Shown one piece after another: positions 10,057 through 62,997 of a stretch of DNA of 64,000 nucleotides. Position numbers and translations under genes: made by a program. Source of the stretch: an archaeon. Lineage in GTDB: Archaea; Nanobdellota; Nanobdellia; Pacearchaeales; GW2011-AR1. The notes under the pieces are model-generated. The model had not been told where the DNA came from and searched no databases. It was given only the letters and a program-made list of their open reading frames with translations. The DNA lies in assembly GCA_024278335.1 (NCBI GenBank), contig JAJRTJ010000003.1, positions 165,297 to 229,296 on the forward strand. Direction: 5' to 3'. Positions within the stretch are counted from its first letter, which is position 1; every line of letters starts with the position of its first letter.

Positions 10057-10450
10057 TGGAGTTTTTTGGAAATCTTAAAACATCTTTAACCAGGATATCT
10101 TGACTTTTTTCTATGGAAATTTGAATTTTCCCGTTAGGATAGAGGATTACAAGTGAACCCTCTTTTTTGAATCGATATCCTAAATTATCTGAATCAGAAA
10201 GATCGTATCCTGCTTCAAAATAATTTTGTTGTTCTAAGAAAATTATTCTTTCTCTTAGGTCTGGAATTTCTTCCAGTTTCCTTTGAAGAGAAGGTTTTGG
10301 TTCCTTTTGATTAATTCTACAAGCTGTTGCATAAGCTCTTGCTTCTTCTGGAGGTGTTGAATATGGGTGCAGGGAATCTCTCAGATTTATCATAAAGGAA
10401 TATTTGGCTTTTGATTTATAAATTTTGTTATATTTCTCTTTCTGGTTCAA
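10043..10450 (-). CDS. Hypothetical protein co-oriented with and overlapping the HerA-like ATPase 3' end
   Basis: 135 aa ORF with a 23-nt overlap with the upstream ATPase ORF. No motif. Confidence 0.35.
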   Translation of the reverse strand: MNQKEKYNKIYKSKAKYSFMINLRDSLHPYSTPPEEARAYATACRINQKEPKPSLQRKLEEIPDLRERIIFLEQQNYFEAGYDLSDSDNLGYRFKKEGSLVILYPNGKIQISIEKSQDILVKDVLRFPKNSITEP

Positions 10451-10961
10451 CAGCCATTGGAGCTTCTCCTCCGTGCCAGGTTAATCTTGGGCGCATTCTC
10501 ATGGGATAAATTCTTTCAGAATTGTCATCAAGGATTATTGCAGAACCTTTTAATGTTGGAAGTTCGTCCATGTATTTTTTAATCCCTTCTAAAAGATAGC
10601 TTTGCATTATGTAGTTTAGTGCTTGAAGGTCTTGAGCAGAAGTTACTCTGTGTGCTAAGACAATATCTGATTGGGTCATTACATCTGTGTGGATTTTTCC
10701 AGGCTGTTGAGTTGCAAGAACAACTGAAATTCCTGGCTGTCTTCCTTCTCTAAGCAATTGAATTAATGCGTCTGTTGCAATAGTCTTTTTGTCTTTTGGC
10801 AGAAATTCGTGGGCTTCATCTATAAACATCCAGACAAGAGGGTTTTCCTTTTTTTCTTGAGTTCCAGAAAAATCAATCCCAGTTTCAATTGCTTTTATTT
10901 CTTCTTTTTTTCTTGAATCCATTCTTTGATTAAATATCTTTCTTGAAACCAAGCTTATCAC
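10428..10961 (-). CDS. HerA/FtsK-like P-loop ATPase, C-terminal part (Walker B)
   Basis: WMFIDEAHEFLP Walker B and LLREGRQPGISVVLATQQPG. This frame is actually open upstream to about 11195, so the GTG at 10961 is only a track artefact. Confidence 0.7.
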   Translation of the reverse strand: MISLVSRKIFNQRMDSRKKEEIKAIETGIDFSGTQEKKENPLVWMFIDEAHEFLPKDKKTIATDALIQLLREGRQPGISVVLATQQPGKIHTDVMTQSDIVLAHRVTSAQDLQALNYIMQSYLLEGIKKYMDELPTLKGSAIILDDNSERIYPMRMRPRLTWHGGEAPMAVEPEREI

Positions 10962-11155: not shown

Positions 11156-11740
11156 CTATTTCTTGGATAATTGTAGAGAGGTTGTAGTCTTTTTTTGGTT
11201 TTTTAATTTTGTAATAATTCTTGAAATTAATACTGCAACTGGGTGGGTCATTTCTAATCCAAAAGTTAATATCCAGTCTCCAGAAGTCATTTCAGTTATA
11301 TCTAATGCAAATGGCTCATCTACAGGAATTCCCTTTTGGGCATATTCTTCAAAGTGCCCTGCAGGAGCAAATACTTTGACAGGAAGACTTTGGGGGGATA
11401 ATTTCCATTCATTAAGCAAACCCCTGTCTTTTTCATTTGGATATTTCATTGTCCAGTAAATCCCCATTGTGTCAAAAATTAAAGATGCAATATTGTCGCT
11501 TGTTTCCTGAGGAAGATTTGTTAGTTCTTCTGCAATTACTCCAAGAGTGTAAGATTTTCCAGAGCCTCTTTTTCCTGCTACAAGAATTACATGGGACCTT
11601 GCTATGTCTAAAAGAAGCCTGTTGCTAAGAGAAGTATATTGGCCCATTTTTACATAACCTTTGCCAATATAAGTTAGTCCTTTTTGCTTTAGGGATTTTT
11701 TATCTGCTTCGTTTCTTCCAATGATTATGTCGTAGGGCAT
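11156..11740 (-). CDS. HerA/FtsK-like P-loop ATPase, N-terminal part (Walker A)
   Basis: HAS-barrel-like N-terminus and Walker A VAGKRGSGKSYT. It ends at a TAG 27 nt after an A7 run where the frame switches to the downstream part. Confidence 0.7.
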   Translation of the reverse strand: MPYDIIIGRNEADKKSLKQKGLTYIGKGYVKMGQYTSLSNRLLLDIARSHVILVAGKRGSGKSYTLGVIAEELTNLPQETSDNIASLIFDTMGIYWTMKYPNEKDRGLLNEWKLSPQSLPVKVFAPAGHFEEYAQKGIPVDEPFALDITEMTSGDWILTFGLEMTHPVAVLISRIITKLKNQKKTTTSLQLSKK

Positions 11741-16717: not shown

Positions 16718-16746
16718 GGATTTTTGTGATTATCTGTTATCGGAAT

Positions 16747-16985
16747 GCCCCGATAGTTCAGTGGCCAAGAACGCCGCCCTCTCAATGATTAGAATAAGGA
16801 ATTTATCAATTTCTTATACGAAATTTTAAGTTCCAGAGAGAGGTGATCTAGTCTCGATGAGAGAAAAGGTCTTTGCATCTCAATGCAGCCGCTCTCAGGA
16901 AGAAGTTCATAGAACTTCTTACTTGCACAGAAAAATCTGTGCCTGGAGAACGGCGGTAACCCGAGTTCAAATCTCGGTCGGGGCG
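16747..16985 (+). tRNA. tRNA-Glu(CUC) with a 166-nt intron at canonical position 37/38
   Basis: Acceptor GCCCCGA/TCGGGGC, D arm GTTC..GAAC, anticodon stem CCGCC/GGCGG, T arm CCGAG TTCAAAT CTCGG. The spliced loop is CTCTCAC. Exons 16747-16784 and 16951-16985 give 73 nt. No CCA is encoded. The isotype call rests on the inferred splice sites. Confidence 0.75.
16785..16950 (+). other. tRNA intron (166 nt)
   Basis: Relaxed bulge-helix-bulge. The 4-bp helix is CTCT (16779-16782) with GGAG (16945-16948). It is flanked by 3-nt bulges CAA (16783-16785) and AAC (16949-16951). Internal hairpins lie at 16874-16887 and 16900-16920. Confidence 0.65.
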
Positions 16986-17050
16986 TTGAGTGTTTTTTCT
17001 TAATTGTTAATCAGAGCGAAATTTATAAACTCCTTTTATTTGTTTAAGAA

Positions 17051-52178: not shown

Positions 52179-52757
52179 ATGTGCAATCTATGTAATATAA
52201 AACCTGTTTATGAATTTACAAATAAAAGAAAGCTTTGCTCTGCTTGTTTTATTAGGTGGTTTAGAAAAAAAGTGTTTTATACAATGAGGAAATTTGGAAT
52301 GGCTAAGAGGGGAGATTGTATTTATTATCCAGAAAGAAGGGATTTTAGAAATGTTGTTTTAGAGGAAGTTTTAAAGATATGGTCAGAAAAGGCAGGAGTT
52401 GAATTAGTCAGTAGAAAGAAGAAAGGGAGCCGCTCGGCATACCCCAAAATGCGGAATTCTGGGGCATGTTTAATTGCTGTTGCTGATACTTTGGATATTA
52501 CTTGTTTGAATTTTATTGAGGAAGTGTTTGGGAGAAAAAAAGAGAATTTACTTCCAGTTGTTGGGGGGGCCATCAAACCTTTGTATTTATTTTTAGATGA
52601 GGAAGTTGAATTATATGCTAAATTATTGAAGTTGAAATTTAATAAAAATAAAGAGAGGAAAAACAAGCTTGCAGATTTTATTAATTCTTTAGAAAAAAAT
52701 CATCCTGAAGTCAAAAGAGCTGTGGTTAATAGTTATTTGGAATTGTTTTATAATTGA
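52179..52757 (+). CDS. Zinc-finger protein resembling the N-terminus of TtuA/Ncs6/TilS-type PP-loop enzymes, with a degenerate PP-loop
   Basis: CNLC...CSACF N-terminal finger followed by a PP-loop-like but non-canonical region. It contains the 39-nt element in frame. Confidence 0.3.
   Translation: MCNLCNIKPVYEFTNKRKLCSACFIRWFRKKVFYTMRKFGMAKRGDCIYYPERRDFRNVVLEEVLKIWSEKAGVELVSRKKKGSRSAYPKMRNSGACLIAVADTLDITCLNFIEEVFGRKKENLLPVVGGAIKPLYLFLDEEVELYAKLLKLKFNKNKERKNKLADFINSLEKNHPEVKRAVVNSYLELFYN
52428..52466. repeat. 39-nt GC-rich palindromic element, copy 1 (in frame, encodes SRSAYPKMRNSGA)
   Basis: agccgctcggcataccccaaaatgcggaattctggggca is 34/39 identical to 62788-62826. Confidence 0.85.
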
Positions 52758-56034: not shown

Positions 56035-56676
56035 TTATTTTAAATTTTCTCTTATCTCCTTTATGTTAATATTTTTTCCAGGGCACAAAGTTGCCTTTAA
56101 TTCTCTATGTCCATAAAACTTATCCCTTGTAAGGTGGTATTTATCTTTTATTGTGTTCAACACTTGATATAAGGAATCTAATTGGGCTTGGGTTGGGGAC
56201 GTTATTTCAAAATTTCCAATCATAGCAATTCCTATTGACCCTACATTTTTTCCTTTGCAATGTGCTCCTTGTTTTGAAACTGGTCTCCCATAATCTTCTC
56301 CATATTCTATTGTTCCGTCTTTTGATATGACTACATGGTATCCTATTGCATCCCATCCTCTTGCTCTGTGCGCCTGGTCAATTGAAGAGGCACTTCCCCT
56401 TTCTGATGCAGTGTGGTGAATAACTGCGAAAGAGATATCTCTTTCTGTTTGATATAATTTTCTTTCTAGTTCTGTCTCTTCCCTATAACTTTTTTCAGAA
56501 AATCCTTGTCTTTGAGGAGTATTAACTTGTTCTTGAATTGTTTTTTGTGGGGGGGTTTCTCTTCTTAAAAGTGTTGAAAGTCTTTTGGCAAAAGGAGACC
56601 CCATTACTACAACTCCTCCTGCTGTTAAAGCAGTTGTTAGAAAATTTCTTCTTGTTAAATTGTTTCTTTTTCTCAT
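56035..56676 (-). CDS. Tat-signal N-acetylmuramoyl-L-alanine amidase (Amidase_2 / PGRP-like)
   Basis: Twin-arginine signal TRRNFLTTALTAGG. Zinc and catalytic contexts AVIHHTA, GWDAIGYHVVI, HCKGKNVGSIGIAMIGNF and HRELKATLCPG. Confidence 0.85.
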   Translation of the reverse strand: MRKRNNLTRRNFLTTALTAGGVVVMGSPFAKRLSTLLRRETPPQKTIQEQVNTPQRQGFSEKSYREETELERKLYQTERDISFAVIHHTASERGSASSIDQAHRARGWDAIGYHVVISKDGTIEYGEDYGRPVSKQGAHCKGKNVGSIGIAMIGNFEITSPTQAQLDSLYQVLNTIKDKYHLTRDKFYGHRELKATLCPGKNINIKEIRENLK

Positions 56677-61593: not shown

Positions 61594-62997
61594 ATGAAAA
61601 AACCAGAAAAAGGAGAAATAAGAAAGCCGACAAGGACAATTTCCGGGATTACTCCTGTTGCAGTAATGCTGCCTCCTCGGGCATGTGAGCATGGAGAGTG
61701 TGTTTATTGTCCGAATTTGAATGTTCCTCAAAGCTATACTCCTCGGAGTCCGGTTGTTATGAGAGCAAGTGCAGTAAATTATGATTCTTATAAACAGACT
61801 CAGGCAAGATTAGAGGCATTTAAGGCAATGAATCATCCAACAGACAAGATTGAAATTATTGTTATGGGAGGGACTTTTCTTCAATATTCAAAGAAATTTC
61901 AATATGAGTTTATTAAGGGAATTTATGATGCTTTGAATAATTCTAAATCAAAGAGTTTGGGAGAAGCAAAAAAGAAAAATGAAAGAGCAAAACATCGGTG
62001 TGTTGCTTTGTGCTTGGAAACTAGACCAGATGCTTGTGTTGAGTTTATTGATAGAATGAGAGAATTTGGGTGCACGCGGGTTGAATTAGGAGTTCAGATT
62101 ATTGATGATAGGATTTACAAGTTAGTTAAAAGAGGGCATACAGTTGAGGATGTTGTTAAGGCGACTAAAGCATTGAAAGACGCGGGATTTAAAGTTGGTT
62201 ATCATCTTATACCAGGCCTTCCTGGAAGTAATTTAAAAAAGGATTTAAGATTGTTTAAAAAGATTTTTTCTGACGAAAAGTTTAAGCCAGACCAAATTAA
62301 ATTATATCCTTGTCAGGTTATGCCTGGCTCAGAACTTGAGAATTTATATTGGAATAAAAAGTATAAACCTTACACTAAAAAAGAAATTGAGAAGATTTTG
62401 ATTCAGATGTTAAAAATTGTTCCGAGATATTGTCGTGTTATGAGAGTAATGAGGGAGATTCCTCCAGAGTATATTGTTGCTGGAACAATTCATATTGATT
62501 TAAGAAAAGATATTGAAGCAGAGTTGAGAAAGAAAGATTCAAAACTTAAAGAGATTCGGTATAGGGAAATTGGTTTTGCTTTAAGGGAAGGTAAGGAGAT
62601 TGATTGTAATTTAAGATTAAAGATTACGAGGTATATGGCATCTGGGGGGGAAGAATATTTTTTAGAAATTGTGAATAAGCAGGATATTTTGTTTGGACTT
62701 TGTAGGTTGAGGGTTGTTAGGGGGAAGGCGGTTGTTAGAGAGCTCCATGTTTATGGGCCTGCTTTAAAATTAGGAGAAAAGGGATGGTGCCGATCGGCAT
62801 GCCCCCAATTGCGGAATTCTGGGGCACAACATACTGGTTTGGGGAAATGGCTGATAAGTGAAGCTGAAAAAATTGCTAAAGAAAAATGCATTAAAAAATT
62901 AAAAGTTATTAGTGGGGTTGGCGTAAGAGAGTATTATAAAAAGTTAGGATATAAATTAGATAAGGGAAAAGGGGGGTATATGGTTAAAGGTTTATAA
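61594..62997 (+). CDS. elp3: Elp3-type radical SAM / GNAT tRNA uridine(34) acetyltransferase
   Basis: Radical SAM CEHGECVYCP. GNAT region VRELHVYGPA...QHTGLGKWLISEAEKIA. It contains the 39-nt element in frame. Confidence 0.85.
   Translation: MKKPEKGEIRKPTRTISGITPVAVMLPPRACEHGECVYCPNLNVPQSYTPRSPVVMRASAVNYDSYKQTQARLEAFKAMNHPTDKIEIIVMGGTFLQYSKKFQYEFIKGIYDALNNSKSKSLGEAKKKNERAKHRCVALCLETRPDACVEFIDRMREFGCTRVELGVQIIDDRIYKLVKRGHTVEDVVKATKALKDAGFKVGYHLIPGLPGSNLKKDLRLFKKIFSDEKFKPDQIKLYPCQVMPGSELENLYWNKKYKPYTKKEIEKILIQMLKIVPRYCRVMRVMREIPPEYIVAGTIHIDLRKDIEAELRKKDSKLKEIRYREIGFALREGKEIDCNLRLKITRYMASGGEEYFLEIVNKQDILFGLCRLRVVRGKAVVRELHVYGPALKLGEKGWCRSACPQLRNSGAQHTGLGKWLISEAEKIAKEKCIKKLKVISGVGVREYYKKLGYKLDKGKGGYMVKGL
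62788..62826. repeat. 39-nt GC-rich palindromic element, copy 2 (in frame, encodes CRSACPQLRNSGA)
   Basis: tgccgatcggcatgcccccaattgcggaattctggggca contains the palindromes tgccgatcggca and tgcccc...ggggca. Confidence 0.85.

Follow-up and report, generated by a model that had tools for sequence, protein, structure and literature searches.

The Elp3 gene of the archaeal DNA analysed here (64 kb in all, hereafter the window) carries a GC-rich segment of 39 nt within its reading frame, which raises the question of what this segment is and how it is accommodated by an otherwise ordinary housekeeping gene. The segment, TGCCGATCGGCATGCCCCCAATTGCGGAATTCTGGGGCA (copy 1), contains 24 G+C among its 39 positions in a window of ~32% GC, and it reads in the Elp3 frame as CRSACPQLRNSGA, flanked by ...LKLGEKGW and QHTGLG. 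A second copy, AGCCGCTCGGCATACCCCAAAATGCGGAATTCTGGGGCA, lies inside ORF192, where it reads as SRSAYPKMRNSGA in the same codon phase as copy 1. The features concerned are listed below.

52179–52757, + strand: ORF192, conserved, without Pfam match, adjoining a ThiI-like gene (ORF, Pfam scan; syntenic orthologues in loci L001 and L005)
52428–52466, + strand: element copy 2, 39 nt, SRSAYPKMRNSGA, in ORF192 (pattern match; nhmmer family profile, E = 5.9e-13)
61594–62997, + strand: Elp3, a radical SAM + GNAT tRNA U34 modification enzyme, 467 aa (Pfam Radical_SAM, Radical_SAM_C and Acetyltransf_1; homologues named Elp3)
62752–62832, + strand: Elp3 residues 387–413, the acetyl-CoA blocking loop between strand ...ELHVYG and helix QHTGLG..., containing the element (AlphaFold2, DmcElp3 alignment)
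62788–62826, + strand: element copy 1, 13 codons, CRSACPQLRNSGA, in Elp3 (pattern match; nhmmer family profile, E = 2.6e-10)
62788–62799, + strand: hairpin 1 of copy 1, TGCC-GATC-GGCA, 4-bp stem and 4-nt loop (fold; family-wide covariation)
62800–62826, + strand: hairpin 2 of copy 1, TGCCCC...GGGGCA stem and variable 15-nt loop with AATT-GCGG-AATT (fold)

An earlier note on this DNA had described two adjacent palindromes in Elp3 and a second copy in the same codon phase, and both descriptions hold. Specifically, both hairpins form in the predicted folds (−15.8 and −13.1 kcal/mol), with energies that are unexceptional for the base composition of the window copies (z about −1), and the two copies are identical at 34 of 39 positions. 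The degenerate pattern proposed in that note matches the window at exactly these two sites with 0 mismatches, where 100 shuffles give an expectation of 0.00, and the similarity between the two loci ends at the element borders.

Both copies belong to a larger repeat family with the consensus CGCCGCTCGGCGTACCCCAAATTGCGGAATnnnGGGGCA. A scan of genome contigs found the full element at 14 loci in nine Woese-, Pace- and Nanoarchaeota MAGs (the 25 other matches being GC-rich bacteria in which only the 20-nt pattern matched), and a metagenome scan found 35 further loci. With the nhmmer profile, the 436 kb searched yielded 73 matches in 51 distinct contexts. The search of relatives for further copies that the earlier note had suggested has thus produced at least 51 distinct copies in Woese-/Pace-/Nanoarchaeota MAGs and metagenomes, with their coding phase recorded. 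The viral contigs searched contained 0 copies, and a peptide-level census with a concatenated-peptide query gave no match, words being shared with four candidates only. The unit is exactly 39 nt and is composed of hairpin 1 (NGCC-NNNN-GGCN) followed by hairpin 2 (TRCCCC, a 15-nt variable loop, GGGGYA); the consensus starts with CGCCGC and ends with GGGGCA, and the flank logo places an A-run 3′ of the element in about 75% of copies. The hosts, whose genomes have 27–40% GC, are more than 15 different proteins, including Elp3, Kae1, PolB, LysRS, a ValRS-type enzyme, CysRS, uL22, eL32, IscU, AA-kinase, OFOR-beta and RNase P p30. A search of the window against Rfam 15 returned only two tRNAs above the gathering threshold, and the element itself has no credible Rfam match at E ≤ 10. 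The earlier note knew of no described equivalent in this kind of archaeon, and full-text literature searches likewise turned up no report of elements of this type from DPANN archaea. The 39 nt are thus probably one copy of a previously undescribed double-hairpin repeat family of Woesearchaeota/Pacearchaeota-type DPANN (GTDB Nanoarchaeota), and we extend the same degree of confidence to the explanation as a whole, namely that the element is translated, is non-autonomous and survives where an added loop is tolerated.

Comparison of filled and empty sites points to insertion as a discrete unit. In particular, at site 2 of Kae1, loci L058 and L064 gain exactly 13 codons (39 nt) relative to the empty sites of L051, L068 and L081, without duplication and with unrelated flanks, and the PolB of L055 is longer by exactly 26 residues, corresponding to a tandem pair, than the window's own PolB and that of L047. 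The ORF192 orthologue in L001 lacks the insert and shows a 12-residue gap at the element, which in ORF192 occupies a variable Lys-rich linker. The net length differences at Elp3, Kae1 site 1 and AA-kinase are 10–12 codons, not 13, indicating that insertions are not always clean or were followed by later indels. Two candidate target features were rejected: a target-site duplication, for which the A-rich flanks are repeat-like in L007 and L053 but the Kae1 sites show an exact 39-nt gain, and an att-like core, for which the PolB empty site GGGGCG/AAGAAG resembles the element 3′ end and flank but the upstream flanks of other copies do not.

The variable loops of the element are more similar within genomes (identity 0.70) than between genomes (0.55; p = 0.001), and the window pair matches at 11 of 12 loop positions, compared with 7–8 of 12 for positional orthologues. 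Copies of one genome being more alike than positional orthologues suggests recent within-genome spread or gene conversion. Pfam scans of the 53 ORFs of the window, which encode housekeeping and surface proteins only, and the Pfam annotations of the look-up loci revealed no transposase, integrase or HUH protein, so the case for mobility is drawn from the distribution of the copies.

In Elp3, the element is inserted into the acetyl-CoA blocking loop, as defined in PMC6367351. The aligned loop stretch comprises 35–37 residues in 95 of the 120 closest homologues and 47 residues in the window protein; DmcElp3 (5l7j) has a 10-residue gap opposite the insert, and yeast Elp3 is also gapped here. The 13 residues are therefore an insertion, as the earlier note had proposed, but its assumption that the preceding strand runs straight into QHxGxG is incorrect, since Elp3 orthologues have a native loop of ~12 residues between ...ELHVYG and QHxGxG and the element lies inside that loop. 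In the AlphaFold2 model of Elp3 (mean pLDDT 85.9), residues 393–395 and 397–413 have pLDDT values below 50. The blocking loop of MinElp3 can be replaced by GSGSG with retention of tRNA-induced acetyl-CoA hydrolysis (PMC6367351). The Elp3 copy sits in a flexible, dispensable loop, one that would tolerate insertion.

A small number of close Elp3 relatives have a related copy in the same loop. In an NJ tree of poor resolution, carriers of a copy at the blocking-loop site are found in at least three positions, and P0026 contains a different element family at the same site, which disfavours a single ancient insertion and would require either repeated gain or many losses. Several insert families occur among the Elp3 homologues. 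The GNAT domain of the window Elp3 scores 20.7 bits against a Pfam cut-off of 20.7.

The relation of the element to the reading frame is strongly biased. Among the 51 copies, 39 lie inside ORFs (28 in the main sense frame, 4 and 5 in the two other sense frames, and 2 antisense) and 12 are intergenic or at ORF ends. The codon phase recorded in the earlier note thus describes 28 copies, but not the 9 copies in the two other sense phases, the 2 antisense copies or the 12 outside or at the ends of ORFs. In the main frame the peptide is RRSAYPKLRNxGA, with the SAYPK core and the terminal GA most conserved, while the other sense frames read AARRTPNCG... and PLGVPQ..., and the antisense frame reads APERSNLGYAE. 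The absence of stops and the multiple-of-3 length, first noticed in the two window copies, extend to all intra-ORF copies (39, 54 or 57 nt), and TAG-bearing variants (CGCCAATAGGCA, main frame) are confined to ORF ends and intergenic positions. Furthermore, the Kae1 orthologous copies, which are read in the third frame, show three differences that are all synonymous in that frame, and decayed copies (L005, L083 and L001) have kept the frame after loss of GC and part of the pairing. From these coding patterns, we infer that the 13 codons are probably translated as extra residues of the host proteins. Insertion 5′ of Lys-codon A-runs was considered as the source of the frame bias and discarded, because A-runs in coding sequence start evenly across codon positions (864/754/774); A5 runs exceed T5 runs by only 2.3 to 1. 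Since the target explains neither the frame excess (28 versus 4 and 5) nor the sense excess (37 versus 2), peptide-level selection or some further bias is needed.

We propose the following pathway. The element would insert as exactly 39 nt, with no target-site duplication and usually just 5′ of an A-run. The inserted 13-codon, GC-rich unit would contain no stop in any frame and, owing to this property and its length, would neither shift nor end the host reading frame. It would be transcribed and translated into an extra 13-residue loop, mostly basic and containing Pro and Gly, and copies would survive only at sites that can accommodate it, namely disordered linkers, tails and surface loops, of which the Elp3 blocking loop and the Lys-rich linker of ORF192 would be the examples in the window. 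The element would be non-autonomous, its copies reflecting recent spread within the genome or gene conversion.

Such behaviour recalls the Rickettsia palindromic elements (RPEs; Ogata et al. 2000; reviewed in PMC10969869), elements of about 100–150 bp from an alpha-proteobacterial lineage. Like RPEs, the element is a repeated palindrome found in frame in unrelated housekeeping genes, with its peptide at fold-compatible sites, as well as between genes, and it encodes no transposase. The earlier note's central proposal, a miniature palindromic element maintained in frame in the manner of RPEs, is supported by the size of the family (at least 51 copies, with more than 15 host proteins), by orthologues that lack the insert and by open-frame insertion at permissive sites. 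The element differs from RPEs in being 39 nt long, GC-rich in AT-rich genomes, confined here to DPANN archaea and built of two adjacent hairpins; size and host set it apart from RPE-1 to RPE-10, and a relationship in sequence would not be expected.

Other short repeats share part of these properties. REPs and REPINs, mobilised by RAYTs (IS200/IS605-like Y1 transposases), and the IS200/IS605-derived PATEs are imperfect palindromes of 20–40 nt with G+C-rich stem-loops, and are non-autonomous, strand-asymmetric and free of target-site duplication; correspondingly, the element has a short A/T-run flank and a better hairpin on one strand. However, REPs are by definition extragenic, with a GTAG or CGTC tag at one end (PMC3733652), whereas the element is mostly intragenic (39/51) and its consensus ends carry neither tag; the 64-kb window contains no RAYT/TnpA gene. 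Archaeal MITEs (Sulfolobus, Halobacterium and others; PMC10969869) are small non-autonomous repeats with terminal inverted repeats matching a parent IS and with target-site duplications. The element is also small, non-autonomous and genome-dispersed, but it has no terminal inverted repeats (only its two internal hairpins are inverted) and no target-site duplication, its 39 nt are far below the usual size, and no autonomous parent IS with a transposase lies within the 64-kb window. Yeast mitochondrial GC clusters and the 'byp' elements of Magnusiomyces, both organellar, are short, mobile, GC-rich palindromes of very AT-rich genomes, some of them intragenic; the length of byps is not divisible by 3, and the ribosome skips them. 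In contrast to byps and gene 60 bypassing, the inserts described here are open and multiples of 3, indicating plain read-through, and their flanking codons differ. BHB introns of archaeal protein-coding genes, such as cbf5 of Crenarchaeota, are likewise short structured inserts in an ORF, but the element has no BHB motif and behaves as coding sequence.

The hairpins themselves suggest an alternative, namely that the repeat is kept for a nucleic-acid function (as a DNA site that binds protein or has a structural role, as an antisense-strand signal, or as an mRNA hairpin acting in translation or stability) and that its presence in genes is secondary. In hairpin 1, pairs 1–12 (CG 27/UA 5), 2–11 (GC 37/AU 5) and also 4–9 covary, and in hairpin 2 the CCCC/GGGG stem is nearly invariant. 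Seven pairs are changed on both sides, for example CGCC/GGCG to CACC/GGTG, or ACUG/CAGU in L005, and the observed covariation score is reached in 0 of 500 shuffles, as expected if stems compensate while loops vary; founder-copy subfamilies could mimic this covariation, however, and part of the apparent conservation of the two stems is due to ascertainment, since some of their positions were prescribed by the search patterns. Pairing is better on the minus strand than on the plus strand (96% versus 85% of cells; MFE −14.1 versus −12.1, p = 8e-6), an advantage that rests mainly on the family-wide position 14–38, which is G-C in copy 1, A-U in L002 and A.C (G.U on the minus strand) in most copies. 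A nucleic-acid function is also consistent with the A-run that follows most copies, with the T-run at the start of the element complement, which is the archaeal termination signal and would suit an antisense signal, and with the persistence of GC-rich codons in AT-rich genomes even at apparently old orthologous sites. It is at odds with the lack of an Rfam family and with the tolerance of decayed copies, and a site-specific function is at odds with positions that are scattered over unrelated genes and sites and patchy among orthologues. We consider this alternative unlikely.

A selected protein module, in which RRSAYPKLRNxGA would be a short linear motif recruited repeatedly and the DNA similarity a by-product, is less likely still. 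The dominance of one frame (28 of the 37 sense intra-ORF copies), for which A-run target phase offers no explanation, the conservation of the SAYPK core and terminal GA, and the clustering of copies in Lys-rich tails of ribosomal and nucleic-acid-binding proteins fit such a module. Yet the same DNA is found in two other sense frames, in antisense and between genes, and hairpin covariation alters the peptide (RRSA to HRSV). In addition, the element codons (CGC CGC TCG GCG TAC CCC) are atypical for AT-rich genomes and conservation reaches synonymous positions, which argues for DNA homology and not convergence.

Removal of the 39 nt from the mRNA, by the BHB splicing endonuclease or other processing, or bypass by the ribosome, would leave the peptide unmade. 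RNA splicing does take place in the organism, whose tRNA-Glu(CUC) gene (16746–16986) has a 166-nt intron; the element forms compact GC-rich hairpins, and its strong sense-orientation preference is what an RNA-level signal requires. A BHB motif places a 4-bp helix between two 3-nt bulges at the exon–intron junctions. A relaxed scan, which recovers the tRNA-Glu intron exactly (16785–16950) as a positive control, finds only 3 candidates among 43 contexts that would excise exactly 39 nt, with no recurrent position, compared with 1.7 ± 1.1 in shuffles, and a strict scan, which misses the genome's own tRNA-Glu intron, gave 0 of 45; moreover, different copies have unrelated sequences in the exon flanks from which a BHB would have to form. 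A removed segment need not be a multiple of 3, stop-free or limited to synonymous changes, yet all three properties hold in intra-ORF copies, and decayed copies with weakened hairpins remain in frame. For bypass, the window copies offer no matching take-off and landing codons (TGG...CAA; GGG...TGT). RNA-level removal, raised as an option in the earlier note, is thus highly improbable, as is bypass. Finally, an assembly or chimera artefact is almost certainly not the explanation, as related copies occur in independent NCBI, ENA, JGI and Logan assemblies and identical gene contexts are found in more than one sample (L002, L003 and L004 being three different ENA assemblies).

For the translated, non-autonomous element favoured here, exact duplication-free insertion next to an A-run and the better minus-strand hairpins make a single-stranded-DNA hairpin mechanism of the REP/RAYT or IS200/IS605 type our leading guess as to how it moves. 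In a wider and rather doubtful version, Woese-/Pacearchaeota-group DPANN would harbour an undescribed mobilisation system of this kind, REP/RAYT-like or minimal IS200/IS605-like, that makes exact 39-nt duplication-free insertions by A/T runs and continually adds 13-residue loops to essential proteins, with the hairpins on the mRNA-complementary strand as the recognition structure, or else the hairpins would have a cellular function of their own.

If our interpretation is correct, selfish DNA in protein-coding genes, best known from the RPEs of Rickettsia, also exists in ultra-small, genome-reduced archaea, in a form of only 13 codons. The element would then be a concrete source for many lineage-specific short inserts in DPANN housekeeping proteins, inserts that also matter for annotation, as they depress domain-model scores (the Elp3 GNAT domain, at the Pfam threshold, being an example). 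Its copies would amount to natural experiments that reveal the loops of essential enzymes able to accept 13 more residues, and they would raise the question of how a 39-nt pair of hairpins is moved without duplicating its target in organisms nearly devoid of recognisable transposases.

The 467-aa ORF at 61594–62997 is Elp3, composed of Radical_SAM, Radical_SAM_C and GNAT domains (Pfam) with homologues named Elp3, and contains one copy of the element, which translates to CRSACPQLRNSGA and is flanked by ...LKLGEKGW and QHTGLG.
62788–62826, + strand: element copy 1, TGCCGATCGGCATGCCCCCAATTGCGGAATTCTGGGGCA, in frame within the Elp3 ORF (61594–62997)
52428–52466: element copy 2, 34/39 identical to copy 1, within an unrelated ORF of 192 aa (ORF192) and read in the codon phase of copy 1

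The earlier note had described a GC-rich 39-mer in frame in Elp3, built of two adjacent palindromes, with a second copy (34/39) that shares its phase and lies in another, unrelated ORF, and all of this is borne out: 24 of the 39 nucleotides of copy 1 are G or C in a window of 26–35% GC, and fold prediction recovers both hairpins as described. The search pattern given there matches the two window sites alone, where shuffled sequences are expected to give none, and the likeness between the two loci stops at the element borders. The element at Elp3 is a real feature and not an artefact.

The two window copies are members of a repeat family. Most of the 120 homologues closest to the window Elp3 are ~453 aa long, while ~20 are longer and have in-frame inserts at various sites; inserts resembling the window peptide are present in several homologues (RSAYPKLQNEGV, RSAYPKLWNK, HCPVYPKVLNE, CSVYPKLQSKGA, HLAYPKNLNS...), and their DNA is the same element. 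With a 20-nt pattern from the element's 5′ half, a scan of prokaryotic genomes, one per species, gave 39 loci; the element is complete in 14 of them, which come from nine Woesearchaeota/Pacearchaeota/Nanoarchaeota MAGs, and the remaining 25 are GC-rich bacterial loci matching the 20-nt pattern alone. A metagenome scan with a pattern across hairpin 2 added 35 loci. An nhmmer profile built from the copies gave 73 hits, corresponding to 51 distinct contexts, across AT-rich loci totalling 436 kb; the family consensus is CGCCGCTCGGCGTACCCCAAATTGCGGAATnnnGGGGCA. The scanned viral contigs contain no copies, and no Rfam family matches the element.

Comparison of homologous sites identifies the element as an insertion. 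The aligned stretch across the Elp3 loop is 35–37 residues long in 95 of the 120 closest homologues vs 47 in the window protein, and alignment with DmcElp3 (5l7j) places a 10-residue gap opposite CRSACPQLRN of the window Elp3. In the syntenic locus L001, the orthologue of ORF192 aligns with a gap of 12 residues at the element. At the second site in Kae1, alleles with the element (loci L058 and L064) and without it (L051, L068 and L081) differ by exactly 13 codons with no duplication of the flanks, and removal of 39 nt from L058 restores the length of the empty alleles (AGKS/KKYIEL vs AKESKTYVEL). The family-B DNA polymerase (PolB) of L055 has exactly 26 residues more than the window's own PolB and that of L047. 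At other sites the net gain is 10–12 codons, which implies imprecise insertion in some cases or subsequent indels. An A-run forms the 3′ flank in ~75% of copies (A at +1 in 33/44 and at +2 in 35/44), and G occupies position −1 in 24/44; the A-run is already present in the empty alleles of Kae1 site 2 and therefore belongs to the target. The empty PolB site (L047 1368–1430, compared with L055) reads GGGGCG/AAGAAG, like the 3′ end of the element with its A-rich flank (GGGGCA/AAAAA), which could be junction microhomology or coincidence.

In the AlphaFold2 model of the window Elp3 (mean pLDDT 85.9, pTM 0.89), the insert (residues 399–411) is positioned in the loop between strand 378–386 and helix 416–430, and pLDDT falls below 50 at residues 393–395 and 397–413. 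By alignment to DmcElp3, this loop corresponds to the acetyl-CoA blocking loop (DmcElp3 390–406, MinElp3 466–486; PMC6367351); the earlier proposal of a strand leading directly into QHxGxG was thus not right. Replacement of the MinElp3 blocking loop by GSGSG leaves tRNA-induced acetyl-CoA hydrolysis robust (PMC6367351). The loop is an especially permissive site and, in keeping with this, four or more further types of insert occur there among Elp3 homologues. Element carriers occupy at least three places in a poorly resolved NJ tree. Where carrier P0003 has the element, its sister P0026 instead has another hairpin element, 54 nt long. A single ancient event fits less well than repeated gain or loss of copies that survive because the site is permissive.

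The 54-nt element of P0026 (GTCCCCCAAGGGGGTACCCCGAAACATTTTCTAAAAAAATGTTTACTAGGGGCA, peptide VPQGGTPKHFLKKCLLGA; Elp3 gene at L081 3235–4683) has the TACCCC...GGGGCA stem in common with the 39-nt element and differs in its 5′ hairpin and internal frame. Homologue P0107 has a comparable insert, PQGGTPK.... In P0014 and P0119, the insert immediately before QHKGLG, QHSGLLEGAISLRENAEQV, seems to have arisen by partial tandem duplication of QHxGLG and not from a hairpin element.

Placement of the 51 distinct contexts, confirmed by translation, and the host genes
28 copies: sense, in the frame of the window copies (S1, RRSAYPKLRNxGA), in long ORFs
4 copies: sense, frame 2 (AARRTPNCG...)
5 copies: sense, frame 3 (PLGVPQ...)
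2 copies: antisense, both within one RNase P p30 gene
12 copies: intergenic, ORF-end or unassigned
Elp3: at least three sites
Kae1/TsaD: two sites, in two different frames
PolB: tandem pair in L055, frame-2 copy in L047
Synthetases: class I LysRS, ValRS-type synthetase, CysRS
Ribosomal proteins: uL22, eL32 (two copies)
Others: IscU, amino-acid-kinase-fold protein, OFOR beta, GatD-like protein

The hosts are core housekeeping proteins, and with orthologous sites collapsed the ratio S1 : frame 2 : frame 3 : antisense is roughly 20 : 4 : 3 : 2. The target does not explain the frame and strand bias, because A5 runs in coding sequence begin equally at the three codon positions and exceed T5 runs only 2.3-fold. 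Selection on the encoded peptide is probably the simplest remaining account of the bias. The S1 peptide is basic, hydrophilic and Pro/Gly-rich and would fit Lys-rich linkers, the other readings being more hydrophobic. Antisense insertion would also give the mRNA a T-run, the archaeal termination signal.

The sequence comparisons support translation of the element rather than its removal from RNA. All element lengths inside ORFs are divisible by 3 (the standard unit is 39 nt, two variants reach 57 nt through an 18-nt internal addition, and 54 nt belongs to the related family in L081) and the frames are open; a subfamily whose S1 frame contains TAG (CGCCAATAGGCA) is confined to intergenic positions or exact ORF ends, where the TAG terminates the ORF; orthologous frame-3 copies in Kae1 have three differences, all synonymous in that frame; and decayed copies (L005 at 44% GC, L083 and L001) remain in frame despite erosion of hairpin 2, all of which favours translation. 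Removal at the RNA level had been offered as the alternative and is not supported. A strict bulge-helix-bulge (BHB) scan of the element contexts found nothing, although the same scan misses the tRNA-Glu(CUC) positive control; a relaxed scan, validated by exact recovery of the 166-nt intron of that tRNA in the same genome, gave 3 candidates in 43 contexts, at chance level (1.7 ± 1.1 in shuffles) and none recurrent, so a BHB intron is rejected. The flanks are unlike between copies and therefore cannot provide the exon pairing required by a BHB, and a bypass element is rejected because no matching take-off/landing codon pairs lie beside the window copies.
16746–16986, + strand: tRNA-Glu(CUC) gene split at the canonical 37/38 position by an intron of 166 nt
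This gene is missed by default ARAGORN and Rfam and found by ARAGORN with intron search; its junctions (16785/16950) fit a relaxed BHB with an outer helix, a 4-bp helix and two 3-nt bulges.

Among 46 distinct copies, both stems taken together have 85% of their cells paired on the mRNA strand vs 96% on the complementary strand, with parts of both stems fixed by the search patterns. Hairpin 1 has both-sided changes at 3 of 4 pairs (CG 27 / UA 5; GC 37 / AU 5; CG 42 / AU 1 / UA 1), and the observed covariation score is reached by 0/500 shuffles, although subfamily ancestry can mimic covariation. The recurring peptide change RRSA to HRSV is exactly a G2-C11 to A2-T11 swap, the L005 stem is ACUG/CAGU, and there is free variation at positions 5–8 and in the 15-nt hairpin 2 loop. 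On the mRNA strand most copies have A.C at pair 14-38, which corresponds to G.U or G.T on its complement; of the 46 copies, 34 fold more stably as the complementary strand (p = 8e-6), an asymmetry that rests largely on one position.

Variable loops are more alike within a genome or contig (0.70) than between genomes (0.55; permutation p = 0.001). The window Elp3 copy matches the ORF192 copy at 11/12 loop positions and positional Elp3 copies of other genomes at only 7–8/12; both comparisons indicate recent within-genome spread or gene conversion. Furthermore, a tandem pair shows local amplification by slippage besides dispersal.
L055 9319–9284 and 9280–9244, − strand: perfect tandem pair, 2 × 39 nt, NRSAYPKLRSIGA twice, in the polymerase domain of PolB

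At L070 5575–6046, two inverted copies and a degraded third bracket a minus-strand tRNA gene, accompanied by a duplicated ~40-nt stretch (TTTACGTGACTT[A/G]GAATCCTG...), and one copy gives the stop codon (…GRQ-stop) of the adjoining Lys-rich 220-aa ORF. A second in-frame repeat, of 27 nt (TCCCCAAGGGATGACTCTGGTGAGCCT), encodes SPRDDSGEP, identical in two unrelated proteins, a ValRS-type gene (L042; L075 11584–11610) and Elp3 homologue P0029. Among 53 ORFs of the window, none is transposase-like. Two other loci in the window were recorded.
10431–10922 and 11159–11740, − strand: HerA-like helicase domains divided between two separate ORFs (DUF87/HerA central domain; HerA_C/Zot-like), possibly a split gene or pseudogene
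56038–56676, − strand: N-acetylmuramoyl-L-alanine amidase (Amidase_2) with an N-terminal RRNFL twin-arginine-like signal, by domain a putative peptidoglycan hydrolase in an archaeon without murein of its own

Functionally, the closest known system is the Rickettsia palindromic element (RPE), likewise in-frame, palindromic and located at tolerated sites of housekeeping genes (PMC10969869), although RPEs are ~100–150 bp long and differ in composition, architecture and domain of life. REP/RAYT and IS200/IS605 systems resemble the element in size, absence of target duplication, flank preference and strand asymmetry, whereas the element is intragenic, lacks a GTAG/CGTC tag and has no transposase among 53 ORFs of the window. 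A MITE is rejected, as there is neither a TIR nor a TSD. The full-text literature covered, with most subscription journals outside it, nowhere describes elements of this kind from DPANN archaea. The family, its in-frame lengths and the filled and empty sites support the earlier suggestion of an RPE-like palindromic element kept in frame. The element is best classed as an RPE-like in-frame selfish repeat, whose mechanism of mobility is potentially interesting.
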